Under the pieces are notes generated by a model. It did not search any database. It had not been told where the DNA came from and saw nothing but the letters and a program-made list of their open reading frames with translations. Below are positions 9,493 through 39,091 of a stretch of 62,962 nt of DNA, in pieces (positions within the stretch are counted from its first letter, which is position 1; the number at the start of each line of letters is the position of its first letter). Made by a program: the position numbers and the translations under genes. Source of the stretch: an uncultured Polyangiales bacterium (GTDB lineage Bacteria > Myxococcota_A > Polyangia > Polyangiales > CAYWAT01); contig CAYWAT010000002.1 of NCBI GenBank assembly GCA_964456305.1, forward strand, positions 1-62,962, read 5' to 3'.

Positions 9493-9602
9493 TACGTCCG
9501 TTTGCAGATTTTCTCTCGTCCAATTGCAAATTTTTATTCGTCCATTTGTAAGAAAACAAGGTCAAATCCTGGCTATGGTGAACGTCTCAAAGATCGTTCG
9601 AA

Positions 9603-36359: not shown

Positions 36360-37295
36360 TTAGACCTTAGCAATCCACTCGGCGCTGCGCGCGTGCTCGC
36401 CAGAGACGGCTTGGAAATAGGCCTCTTGCACGCGGGCGGTGACCGGGCCACGCGTACCCGCTCCCACCTGACGACCGTCCACTTCTCGCACGGGCGTCAC
36501 TTCGGCAGCGGTGCCGCACATGAAGACCTCGTCGGCGATGTAAAGCTCATCGCGCGAGACTAAACGCTCTTCCACAGGCAGCCCGAGGTCGGCGATCAAC
36601 TGCAGCACCGTCTCACGTGTGATCCCCCCCAAGATAGAAATGCCCAAGGGCGGGGTCACCACCTTGCCCTGTCGTAGCAAGAAGATGTTCTCGCCGGAGG
36701 CCTCACACACATAGCCCTGTGCATCCAGCATGATGGCCTCGTCGAAACCCAAGGTGAGAGCCTCGCGTTTGGCCAGGATGGAGTTGACGTAATGACCGAC
36801 GGCTTTGCTTTTGGCCATTTGGGCGTTCACGCCGGTGCGCTGAAAGGAGCTGACCTTGGCCCGAATGCCTTTCTTGAGACCCTCTTCGCCCAGATAGGCT
36901 CCCCAGTTCCATGCCACCACCGCGACCCGCGTGGGGTTGTTCATCGCGCCGAGACCCATGGCGGCATCGCCCAAAAAAGCGATGGGACGCAGGTAACAAC
37001 TGCCCAGCTTGTTGACCCGCACCGTCTCCAGGCAGGCCTCGGTGAGTGTCTCGACATCGTAGGGCATCTCGAGGGTGAGAATCTTGGCCGAGTCCACCAG
37101 GCGCTCCAGATGCTCACGCAGCCTGAAGATGCCGCTGCCGCCCGTCTTGAGTTCGTAACAACGAATGCCCTCAAAGACGCCAAAGCCATAATGCAAGGTG
37201 TGCGTAAGCAGGTGAACTTGCGCCTTGTCCCAGTCTACGAGTTCGCCATCAAGCCAGATTTTCGCCACTTTATCGACCATACTGGGGCCCACCAT
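36360..37295 (-). CDS. ilvE: Branched-chain amino acid aminotransferase
   Basis: 311 aa (alternative ATG at 37280). It has class IV aminotransferase motifs (FEGIRCY, …EASGENIFL…, GITRETV). Confidence 0.9.
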   Translation of the reverse strand: MVGPSMVDKVAKIWLDGELVDWDKAQVHLLTHTLHYGFGVFEGIRCYELKTGGSGIFRLREHLERLVDSAKILTLEMPYDVETLTEACLETVRVNKLGSCYLRPIAFLGDAAMGLGAMNNPTRVAVVAWNWGAYLGEEGLKKGIRAKVSSFQRTGVNAQMAKSKAVGHYVNSILAKREALTLGFDEAIMLDAQGYVCEASGENIFLLRQGKVVTPPLGISILGGITRETVLQLIADLGLPVEERLVSRDELYIADEVFMCGTAAEVTPVREVDGRQVGAGTRGPVTARVQEAYFQAVSGEHARSAEWIAKV

Positions 37296-37384
37296 AGCAG
37301 CTTTGTGTCACCCAGCCTGCGCTTTTGCTCCCCCCAGCGCGCACTTTGCTTCGGACACCTTGCATCTCTCGGCTACACAGCTCT

Positions 37385-37494
37385 CACCCTTGGCGTTGGT
37401 ACCCTGCACCCTTCGATCACCCAGGTCGCACCCTTGGCTCTGACAGCGTGCACTTTTTGCGCATCCAGGTCGCACCTCGCTTCGATCACCTTGC
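37385..37494. repeat. 22-bp-phased direct repeat array 1 (core CACCCTT)
   Basis: CACCCTT starts at 37385, 37407 and 37429. Degenerate copies CACTTT and CACCTC start at 37451 and 37473. All starts are exactly 22 bp apart. Confidence 0.75.
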
Positions 37495-37547
37495 CGCCCG
37501 GGGTCTGCATACCCTAACCTTTGCTCCGATGGCACTGCTCCCACCGC

Positions 37548-37767
37548 GCACCACCCCTGTCCGAGGGGTGGACTGGTGCCATCTGACCATGGGACCACCT
37601 TGGCCGGAGGGGTGGACCACCTACAACTGACCCCAGGACCACCCTTCACCGAGGGGTGGACCACCTTCGCCGGAGCATGGGAGCGGCGACATCTGACCCC
37701 AGGACCACCCTTGCCGGAGGGGTGGACCACCCCTGTCCGAGCAGGGGACCACCCTTCGCCGAGCAAA
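37548..37767. repeat. 22-bp-phased direct repeat array 2 (about 10 units, core GGACCACC(C)TT)
   Basis: GGACCACC starts at 37592, 37614, 37636, 37658, 37702, 37724 and 37746. Degenerate units start at 37548, 37570 and 37680. Every start is a multiple of 22 bp from the others. Confidence 0.85.
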
Positions 37768-37778
37768 AAATCCAGCAC

Positions 37779-37995
37779 TCGAGATCGCTCTCGCTTCACT
37801 CTGACCTTGGCTTACGGCCGGCTGCTAAGCAAAGCGACGACTGCGAAGCATCAGACTCTGTGGGCTGCGTGCGAGCGAAGCGAGCGCCTGCGAAGCAGGT
37901 AGCAGCACCTAACAATTAAAGAGTATCTCTCTATACGCCTTCGTCGCTGTGGTCCGGGCGCGCTCAAGTTCAAAGCAAAGCGAGAGCGATCTCGA
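37779..37995. repeat. 217-bp MITE-like element / long hairpin with perfect 18-bp terminal inverted repeats (copy B)
   Basis: TCGAGATCGCTCTCGCTT (37779-37796) is the exact reverse complement of AAGCGAGAGCGATCTCGA (37978-37995). The interior shares three blocks with 30453..30604 in inverted orientation. No target-site duplication is obvious. Confidence 0.75.
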
Positions 37996-38161
37996 CTCTG
38001 TGGTTTTCCCGTTGGCACTCTTATCTCCGCTTACCGACGGCCTGAGCGTGTCAGCCGATAGCTATCGCCAGGTACCAGGAGCGAAATCAGCAAGGGGCAG
38101 AGCAGGATGAGAGCCACCGATGCCGCTTGCTCCCGCAATCCGAAGCGCTTAACCCTCAGCG

Positions 38162-39091
38162 ATGCAGCCCGCAGACGAACCCAGCATGCTTCGCTTCGAG
38201 GAGGTCTCCTATCATTACGGCACGCTAAACGCCCTCGACCAGCTATCCCTAGTGCTGCCCAAGGCCAACATCGGCTTATTGGGTCCCAATGGCGCAGGCA
38301 AAAGCACCTTGCTGCGGCTGATTTTAGGGCTTCTGCAGCCCTCTTCGGGTCAGGTGCAGGTCTTTGGCCAGTCCACGGCCAGCGAGAGCTTAGAGATTCG
38401 CGCCCAACTTGGCTACATGCCCGACCGCGATCCCTGGATGCCTCAGCTCACGGCCTTTGAAATGCTGCGTTTTGCCGCAGAACTGAGCGGTATTCCGGCT
38501 AAGCGGGCCAAGGCAAGGGCCCATGATGTGCTCGATTTTATGGGTCTGGGCGAAGCCAGACATCGCAAACTGGAAACCTTTTCCACCGGGATGCGCCAGC
38601 GCGCCAAACTCGCCCAAGCCTTAGCAGGTGATCCCAAGCTCATCCTGCTGGACGAGCCCACCAGCGGACTTGACCCCGAGGGGCGCGACGCCATGCTCTC
38701 GCTGATCGCCAGCCTGCCCCAGCGCACCGGCATCGTTGCCCTGCTGGCCACGCATATCCTGCCCGATGTGGAACACTGCTGCAGTCACGCCATCGTCCTC
38801 AACAGCGGCAAGCTCCTACACCAGGGCAGTTTGGACGAACTGCTCAACCCCACGGCCCAGTGGTATGAGCTGCGGGTCAAAGGCGACAAAGACCACGCCA
38901 TGGCGCACCTGCAGCAACTGGGCTGCGAGGCCAAATCCGCAGACGCCGAGCTAATCGTGGTGCGCATCCCCCCGCATACCGACGCAAGCGGCCTCTTTGA
39001 TCAGCTGCTCCAGGCGAAACTCGCGCCGCGGCACTGGGCCCCACGCCGTCAGGGGCTGGAAGCCTTGTTTATGGACAATGCCGGCGATTGA
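38162..39091 (+). CDS. ABC transporter ATP-binding protein (ABC-2/exporter type)
   Basis: 309 aa. It has Walker A GPNGAGKSTLLR, the signature FSTGMRQR and Walker B LILLDEPTSGLD. No permease gene is adjacent. Confidence 0.85.
   Translation: MQPADEPSMLRFEEVSYHYGTLNALDQLSLVLPKANIGLLGPNGAGKSTLLRLILGLLQPSSGQVQVFGQSTASESLEIRAQLGYMPDRDPWMPQLTAFEMLRFAAELSGIPAKRAKARAHDVLDFMGLGEARHRKLETFSTGMRQRAKLAQALAGDPKLILLDEPTSGLDPEGRDAMLSLIASLPQRTGIVALLATHILPDVEHCCSHAIVLNSGKLLHQGSLDELLNPTAQWYELRVKGDKDHAMAHLQQLGCEAKSADAELIVVRIPPHTDASGLFDQLLQAKLAPRHWAPRRQGLEALFMDNAGD

Follow-up and report, generated by a model that had tools for sequence, protein, structure and literature searches.

A dispersed intergenic repeat with phased 22-base units in an uncultured Polyangiales bacterium

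We analysed a phased array of 22-base direct repeats located between two divergent genes of an uncultured Polyangiales bacterium. The window, a stretch of 62,962 nucleotides, is contig C2 of a 2.7-Mb assembly (213 contigs, 96% complete, 54.5% G+C). To the left of the array lies ilvE, which encodes a branched-chain aminotransferase on the minus strand (36360-37295; identified by its open reading frame (ORF), Pfam PF01063 and homologues), and to the right, on the plus strand and co-oriented with the array, lies the gene for an ATP-binding cassette (ABC) transporter ATPase (38162-39091; ORF and PF00005). The 866-base gap between them is filled by the 22-base element, a 217-base MITE (miniature inverted-repeat transposable element) and a repeat module termed Z. 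A first-pass annotation of this DNA had singled out the array as a possible set of iterons, centromere-like sites or regulator-binding sites. We found that the tract is present six times in the genome, and we consider it, with a probability of roughly 60%, to be part of a lineage-specific, dispersed, non-coding intergenic repeat in which the 22-base units, with their cores, are recognition sites.

The array between ilvE and the ABC transporter gene

The repeat positions reported by the first-pass annotation proved accurate. The octamer GGACCACC starts at 37592, 37614, 37636, 37658, 37702, 37724 and 37746, all seven as listed, and occurs 10 times in the window compared to 1.23 expected matches, a count that 0 of 100 shuffles reached. 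In a layout with 22 bases per row, the positions claimed for the degenerate units (37548, 37570 and 37680) and for the upstream CACCCTT set (37385, 37407 and 37429) were also confirmed, and the CACCCTT starts are offset by 13 bases (equivalently -9) from the register of the GGACCACC starts. The strict 22-base phase was borne out by the self-identity of 37328-37767, which peaked at lags 22 (0.445), 44 (0.51) and 66 (0.457), compared to 0.28 ± 0.021 (maximum 0.36) in shuffles of the same tract; lags 21 and 23 were at background. Tandem Repeats Finder (TRF) likewise returned periods of 22, 44 and 66 for the array, in which 22-base units are organised into higher-order 44- and 66-base repeats.

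Two earlier statements needed revision. The array is tandem, as described, but its size had been put too low, at about 15 units: degenerate periodicity begins at ~37328, giving ~20 units over 37328-37767. The proposal that all sites occupy one DNA face holds for neighbouring units but not for the array overall unless the helical repeat is near 11, as a 22-base period at 10.5 bp per turn rotates successive sites by ~34 degrees.

The element opens on the plus strand with a leader (37300-37349), delimited from a six-copy alignment in which BLAST and nhmmer homology starts at 37294-37323 depending on the copy; within it, the block TGCTCCCCCCAGCGCGCAC at 37326-37344 is almost unchanged in all six copies. 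Register layout and unit consensus then define a first sub-array of ~nine C-rich 22-base units (37350-37547, plus strand), the last three of which are degenerate and make up the junction. The consensus of this sub-array, taken from the copy on contig C132, is CTCACCCAGCTCGCACCCTTCG, with a CACCC core on the plus strand only, and its self-identity is 0.38 at lag 22 and 0.46 at lag 44. The second sub-array (37548-37767, plus strand; TRF, register layout and lag identity) comprises ten 22-base units with a core formed by GGACCACC at positions 1-8 and C.GA(G/C) at positions 14-18, and its self-identity is 0.52 at lag 22 and 0.62 at lag 66. The 44-base double unit of the array reads GGACCACCCTTGCCGGAGGGGT GGACCACCTACAACTGACCCCA.

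This second half of the array also contains four 21-base palindromes of the form CCACCC-loop-GGGTGG (array hairpin, CCACCCCTGTCCGAGGGGTGG). One, CCACCCCT-GTCCG-AGGGGTGG at 37551-37571, can form a hairpin with an 8-pair stem and a 5-base loop, and equivalent palindromes of the same hairpin type lie at 37595-37615, 37639-37659 and 37705-37725, all given on the plus strand. Between copies of the element, the loops differ and the stems are kept. The first tail module (GAGCAAAAAATCCAGCACTC..., 37763-37785, plus strand), which was aligned with the tails on contigs C14, C98, C132 and C151, is split here by the MITE. Elsewhere in the window, TRF reported another 22-base tandem repeat at 9495-9548 (2.5 copies of CGTCCATTTGCAAATTTTCACT), whose sequence is unrelated.

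Six intergenic copies with constrained unit cores

The genome-wide motif search suggested in the first-pass annotation revealed clusters of GGACCACC at 22-base spacing on seven other contigs. Based on BLAST and an nhmmer profile, the tract 37294/37312-37781 is present six times in the genome. Three copies are full (C2; C14:17470-18029, minus strand; and C132:6176-6737), and the other three are split at contig ends, with 5' parts on C61, C143 and C153 and 3' parts on C98 and C151; five of the eight element pieces lie at contig ends. The element is ~470-570 bases long, and its copies have in common the leader, the CACCC sub-array, the GGACCACC sub-array with its four palindromes and a tail that opens with GAGCAAAAAA(T/G)CCAGCA. 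The order of the tail modules X (CCTGGGTGAGCG...), Y (CCAGTGGGCAAAAAA...) and Z (38012-38113) differs from copy to copy. Two independent ENA metagenome assemblies (ERZ23498700 and ERZ27264745) contain identical ilvE-proximal and ABC-proximal sequence, and the element is therefore no artefact of this assembly. The ENA contigs break inside the repeats, and exact-protein look-ups otherwise gave only identical contigs or no entry for the protein.

Unit types succeed one another in the same order in every copy, which indicates that the array was assembled before it was copied. Because orthologous units across copies are more alike than neighbouring units, the array would have been built once and afterwards spread as a unit. 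Copies have since gained or lost whole units, with an insertion of 44 bases on C143 and a deletion of 22 bases on C61, and their first sub-arrays are 78-92% identical. Between C2 and C132, however, the second sub-array is 98% identical compared to 83% for the first, and some units have changed type through multi-base changes, both of which suggest that copies and units have recombined with or converted one another. The histories of the two array halves differ, and the halves of different copies stand in mosaic relationships. Later change in the element would have proceeded by slipped or unequal recombination in 22-base steps, together with conversion between copies.

All copies are intergenic, and the genes beside them are unrelated. 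They include ilvE and the ABC ATPase, a thiamine pyrophosphate-dependent enzyme, a HEAT-repeat protein, a 4HBT thioesterase and methionine aminopeptidase (map), among others; the copy on C151 abuts a convergent gene, possibly for a membrane protein or lipoprotein (judged from the N-terminal sequence only). Four copies lie beside a divergent upstream gene and two behind a co-directional gene, and the downstream gene, where visible, is co-oriented with the element in three of four cases. No rep, par or evident DNA-binding gene was found in the immediate flanks of the copies.

These surroundings bear on whether the array might be an iteron-type replication origin or a ParR/ParB-type centromere, two of the roles raised by the first-pass annotation. 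The R6K gamma origin carries plasmid iterons in the form of seven 22-base repeats, and the tandem direct units found here resemble R6K-type iterons and fall within the 17-22-base range of iteron repeats. Unlike such iterons, the element occurs as six dispersed chromosomal copies of ~20 units each, in unrelated and ordinary housekeeping neighbourhoods, and it lacks both a rep gene and an AT-rich unwinding element (none was seen on reading 37296-38161). As the annotation itself had stated, no rep or par gene is nearby, the immediate neighbours being ilvE and the ABC ATPase. Neither role stands in light of these observations, and we consider an origin or centromere extremely unlikely. The third role raised there, that of a platform for regulator binding, may still apply. 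The annotation had also said that its reading would fall if the motif were a ubiquitous genomic satellite with no positional preference; that case is largely borne out, as the motif is a genomic repeat and not specific to this locus, but every copy is intergenic.

The same copies make it highly improbable that the tract is a protein-coding repeat gene, such as the 163-codon ORF at 37308-37799 on the minus strand. Although long frames are open on both strands, the insertions and deletions of 44 and 22 bases between copies shift every reading frame. The 45 substitutions between C2 and C132 are spread evenly over the codon positions of the long minus-strand ORF (16/15/14), ORFs in the other copies are broken up over different frames, and the overlapping ORFs of the element had no Pfam match. 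The earlier argument that the array is non-coding is upheld by these results.

Diversity between copies was tallied for each of the 22 positions of a unit. For the second sub-array, there was almost no variation between copies at positions 1-8 (GGACCACC), 14 (C) and 16-18 (GAG/GAC), and positions 9-13, 15 and 19-22 varied, such that 9 of 120 core columns were variable compared to 40 of 100 non-core columns (Fisher test, P = 9e-9). Information within the array and diversity between copies were negatively correlated (Spearman's rho = -0.78 for the second sub-array and -0.48 for the first). Because misaligned paralogous units could mimic constraint, we repeated the test on plainly orthologous units (37548-37701; five copies and the short overlap of a sixth), where only 1 of 84 core columns varied compared to 15 of 70 others (Fisher test, P = 3e-5). 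The variable unit positions include the hairpin loops and leave the stems intact. Such a pattern requires selection, which could be exerted by the host or act on a master copy that must stay recognisable to its propagator. The differences between copies avoid the unit cores, so the 22-base units are probably recognition sites, most likely for a protein, and the constraint is that expected of multi-site recognition.

The remainder of the gap between ilvE and the ABC gene is also repetitive. The 217-base inverted-repeat element that the first-pass annotation placed next to the array was confirmed at 37779-37995, inside the tail of the window copy, as a MITE with 31-base inverted arms that are 87% complementary. 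The MITE belongs to a family of its own, distinct from the 22-base element and very abundant: BLAST matched well over 100 related copies or fragments across the genome. The sequences that flank it here together restore an unbroken tail as found on C14 (CCAGCACTCTG...). A possible ACTC/CTC duplication accompanies the MITE insertion. Module Z (38012-38113, plus strand) belongs to the shuffled tail region, and 48 bases separate its end from the start codon of the ABC ATPase downstream. Matches to it at 97-100% identity were found at C109:1-102 and C177:1-55, and one at 85% at C151:100-159, where the module comes straight after an array tail. With 5-17 bases between the ilvE ATG (37295) and the first homology to the element, and 48 between module Z and the ABC ATG, the whole 866-base divergent region is repeat DNA, and we infer that the promoters of both ilvE and the ABC gene lie inside it. 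The start of ilvE is ambiguous: the ORF opens at 37295, and homologues that are five residues shorter suggest the second ATG, at 37280. With either start, the 5' untranslated region extends into the repeat element.

Distribution and competing explanations

The genome is the only member of its family among the genomes searched. The whole element was absent from 300 genomes of the same order and from 400 sampled from the phylum, 1 of which contained the degenerate pattern, and the triple-octamer pattern was absent from 40 relatives. The hairpin pattern had 0 matches in a metagenome scan, and nothing useful emerged from literature searches on the motif or on myxobacterial 22-bp repeats. Scanning 185,579 species revealed GGACCACC-bearing 22-base arrays in three other metagenome-assembled genomes (MAGs), namely Myxococcales DBS2-1.bin68, a Loclat delta-proteobacterium bin (bin-17204) and AMR_MDS_0291. 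Similarity between these arrays and the element beyond the octamer was seen by eye, but a shuffle test gave P values of 0.4-0.9, and we therefore treated the three arrays as unrelated. The same MAGs contain long, very homogeneous intergenic minisatellites with units of 21-22 bases, for example GGAYCACCYGCCTCGACCACCC (at several loci, with 15 or more units) and TCAACGTCCGCTCAGGACCACC (~25 units or more).

The explanation that we favour, a lineage-specific dispersed repeat with recognition sites in its units, builds directly on what the copies display: their number and intergenic dispersal, their non-coding nature, the gain and loss of whole units, their mosaic halves and the constraint on their cores. 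By type, the element would be an interspersed repeat that bears a minisatellite, comparable to BrickBuilt of Porphyromonas gingivalis and to the bacterial interspersed mosaic elements (BIMEs) of enterobacteria. Each unit would serve as a site for a sequence-specific protein, which could be the propagator of the element or a DNA-binding protein of the host. Because the ilvE and ABC promoters must lie in repeat DNA, the element probably affects the expression of both genes, as shown by experiment for BrickBuilt.

Several results weigh against this explanation. Terminal inverted repeats were not found; an arm unit and the tail show the only inverted match, over 8-12 bases (CGATCACCCAGG / CCTGGGTGATCG), and the inverted leader core was absent from every tail at three or fewer mismatches (the best matches need four or five). 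The tail does hold one inverted copy of the arm-unit core (CCTGGGTGA), which is perfect over 12 bases on C14. A terminal inverted match of ~45 bases seen by eye was supported neither by alignment statistics nor by the mismatch search. No clear target-site duplication could be read in the alignment of copies, whose boundaries, the 5' one included, are fuzzy. A partner transposase was not found: the genome has no rve-type gene, and its single IS200-type tnpA has no extended sequence in common with the element. No close relative was available for comparison with an empty site: the closest ilvE proteins, which come from MAGs of Sandaracinaceae and Polyangiales, are 72% identical, and their genes are not syntenic. 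Finally, copies that have diverged by up to 22% are nonetheless kept in a small genome with their cores constrained, and this combination of retention and core constraint agrees with a host function no less well than with a selfish element.

One such function would be that of a docking platform, in which the copies are multi-site tracts for a host DNA-binding protein, for instance a regulator or a nucleoid-associated protein. This protein would coat or wrap ~200-450 bases of chosen intergenic DNA, with about one site per two helical turns, and so set the activity of the flanking promoters. We regard this as unlikely. In its favour, the purifying pattern falls on two short blocks per unit, ~11-12 bases apart, and insertions and deletions occur in whole units only, so that phase is kept. 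Four of the six copies lie in divergent promoter gaps, and those of ilvE and the ABC gene must contain promoters within repeat DNA. Old copies, with first halves only 78-92% identical, are still retained in a 2.7-Mb genome that has several other multi-copy families of 21-base units. However, slippage alone also yields whole-unit changes, and the core constraint could reflect selection on a mobile master copy. No candidate protein is encoded beside any copy, the flanking genes have no common function, and the same-octamer arrays of other genomes have nothing else in common with the element. Given the absence of the family from the sampled genomes of the order and phylum, any reader protein would have to be lineage-specific.

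The other families were revealed by applying TRF to all contigs, which identified 51 arrays with a period of 21 bases, 23 with a period of 42 and 9 with a period of 84. These arrays fall into at least four further multi-copy, non-coding families, such that the 22-base element is one of several families of ~21-22-base units in this lineage. Example families are GGTGCAACGCCCTCTGCGCTC on C19/C21/C158 and ACGATTAAGGGGTCCGACC on C59/C134/C136/C182, and a few 84-base arrays (C90 and C104) look like coding Asp-rich repeats. A fold-back family of ~nine copies, each of ~400 bases, has opposed runs of 21-base units around a conserved centre, with unit cores YCGCACA / TGTGCGR at 21-base spacing (among them C14:27143-27534, C87:4590-4982, C11:4573-4900, C29:1260-1668 and C154:3660-4113). 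The presence of several families is the basis of a wider proposal, in which the 22-base units and those of at least four other 21-base array families are docking sites for undescribed sequence-specific DNA-binding proteins that build, spread or read the arrays. We consider this proposal speculative and rather doubtful. If it were true, the arrays would not be inert repeats but a system, specific to this lineage and kept by selection on the unit cores, that organises or controls intergenic DNA.

The hairpins raise the alternative of a structured RNA, in which transcription of the plus strand, by itself or as the 5' leader of the gene downstream, would yield repeated hairpins with GGA in their loops to which an RNA-binding protein binds. 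Consistent with this, stems are kept as loops vary, the 18 stem positions that are not Watson-Crick pairs all read T-G on the plus strand (C-A on the other) and go back to about three independent events, and the downstream gene is co-oriented in three of the four visible cases. Most of the remaining evidence makes an RNA improbable. There was no Rfam match at E <= 1, folding z-scores were -1.5 for the plus strand and +0.5 for the minus strand, and RNAalifold on four copies gave a covariation term of +0.69 with no covariation, with the C14 copy breaking two helices. No promoter or terminator is conserved in three copies, sigma-70 and terminator scans of four copies returned nothing conserved, one copy abuts a convergent gene, and the genome has no CsrA gene. 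A CsrA sponge of the CsrB/RsmZ type was specifically rejected, with no PF02599 match in the 96%-complete genome and no Rfam match. Sequences resembling sigma-54 sites (TGGCAC, in some copies and in module Z) were dismissed on reading, as their GG-to-GC spacing is 12-13 and not 10.

The hairpins might instead be DNA substrates of the kind formed by repetitive extragenic palindromic (REP) sequences and BIMEs. In this scenario, the single Y1 (IS200-type) transposase of the genome would recognise single-stranded CCACC...GGTGG hairpins and spread or maintain them. The single-copy Y1_Tnp gene is located at C7:19554-19985, and its right-end hairpin, CCACCGGC-TGTTA-GCCGGTGG, lies 50 bases past the gene at C7:20035-20055. 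Searching for 8-pair stems with CCACC/GGTGG outer arms and loops of 3-7 bases, we found only 16 sites in the genome, 13 of which are in copies of the element and one of which is the Y1 right-end hairpin. Three other genomes of the order also have this hairpin type, located beside tnpA genes of 50-54% identity, and the shuffled tail of the element recalls BIME architecture. Both the left- and the right-end hairpins of the Y1 gene are conserved beside those tnpA genes.

Against a Y1 substrate, however, the match is limited to the five outer stem pairs and the geometry (stem and loop length), and local alignment of the insertion sequence ends with the element was at chance level. The hairpin is not dispersed in the three other genomes, and no GTAG-type tetranucleotide lies 5' of the hairpins, which are preceded by GGA or GCA. 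With 13 hairpins at six loci, the copy number is far under that of REP families. We estimated the likelihood of coincidence at ~1-2%, for a match that was noticed after the fact. The link to the IS200-type hairpin is a weak lead, and we think it quite improbable that the element is a substrate of this transposase.

Likeness to known elements and significance

Among known elements, the closest to the dispersed repeat described here is BrickBuilt, a MITE of Porphyromonas gingivalis that consists of a 23-nt spacer-less minisatellite with a leader and a tail (Klein et al. 2015, PMC4596501). BrickBuilt is present in 19 copies, always intergenic, with a variable number of units and with promoter activity, and it is found only in P. 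gingivalis and P. gulae (PMC4596501). Its terminal inverted repeats of 11-12 bases match IS5-family elements, and some copies have target duplications (PMC4596501). The two elements share spacer-less, imperfect tandem units of about two helical turns (23 compared to 22 nt) with conserved and variable positions, as well as a leader and a tail common to the copies, although here the leader is nearly invariant and the tail modules are shuffled. Both occur in low tens of copies or fewer, always in intergenic DNA, with varying unit number and no transposase inside, and both are restricted to one lineage and located in promoter regions. Features that set the element apart from BrickBuilt are its two distinct sub-arrays, its palindromic units and the shuffling of its tail. 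Because neither IS5-like terminal inverted repeats nor clear target duplications were seen here, we liken it to BrickBuilt and do not file it as a MITE.

BIMEs come next in likeness, on account of the shuffled tail and the palindromes. Like the BIMEs and REP clusters of enterobacteria and pseudomonads, which are associated with REP-associated tyrosine transposases (RAYT), the element is an intergenic mosaic of short hairpin-capable palindromes with modules in variable order, in a genome with a single-copy Y1 transposase and a hairpin with the same outer stem. It differs from them in number, with six copies instead of hundreds, in the arrangement of its units, which keep strict tandem direct phase where REPs alternate, and in lacking GTAG. 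In this genome, moreover, the Y1 gene is IS200-like, no copy of the element flanks it, and the two have no extended sequence in common.

The BOX elements of Streptococcus pneumoniae have a modular A-B(n)-C structure with tandem internal units in variable number, are intergenic and hairpin-capable, and can influence adjacent genes; their unit is 45 bases and their copy number high. They resemble the present element in their modular build, variable tandem units, intergenic location and capacity to form hairpins, but differ in unit size, have a much higher copy number and show no sequence relation.

For genome scanning, the element is a caution that a phased array with the appearance of an origin or centromere in one window may be a copy of a dispersed family, and such a repeat also breaks short-read assemblies. 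Bacterial interspersed repeats with internal minisatellites have rarely been described, with BrickBuilt as the main worked example, and such an element is now seen in Myxococcota. As its unit cores are under constraint, a trans-acting reader protein is a testable prediction. The locus further indicates that the whole control region of a housekeeping gene pair can be repeat DNA, in which case repeats must have provided or displaced the promoters of ilvE and of the ABC operon.

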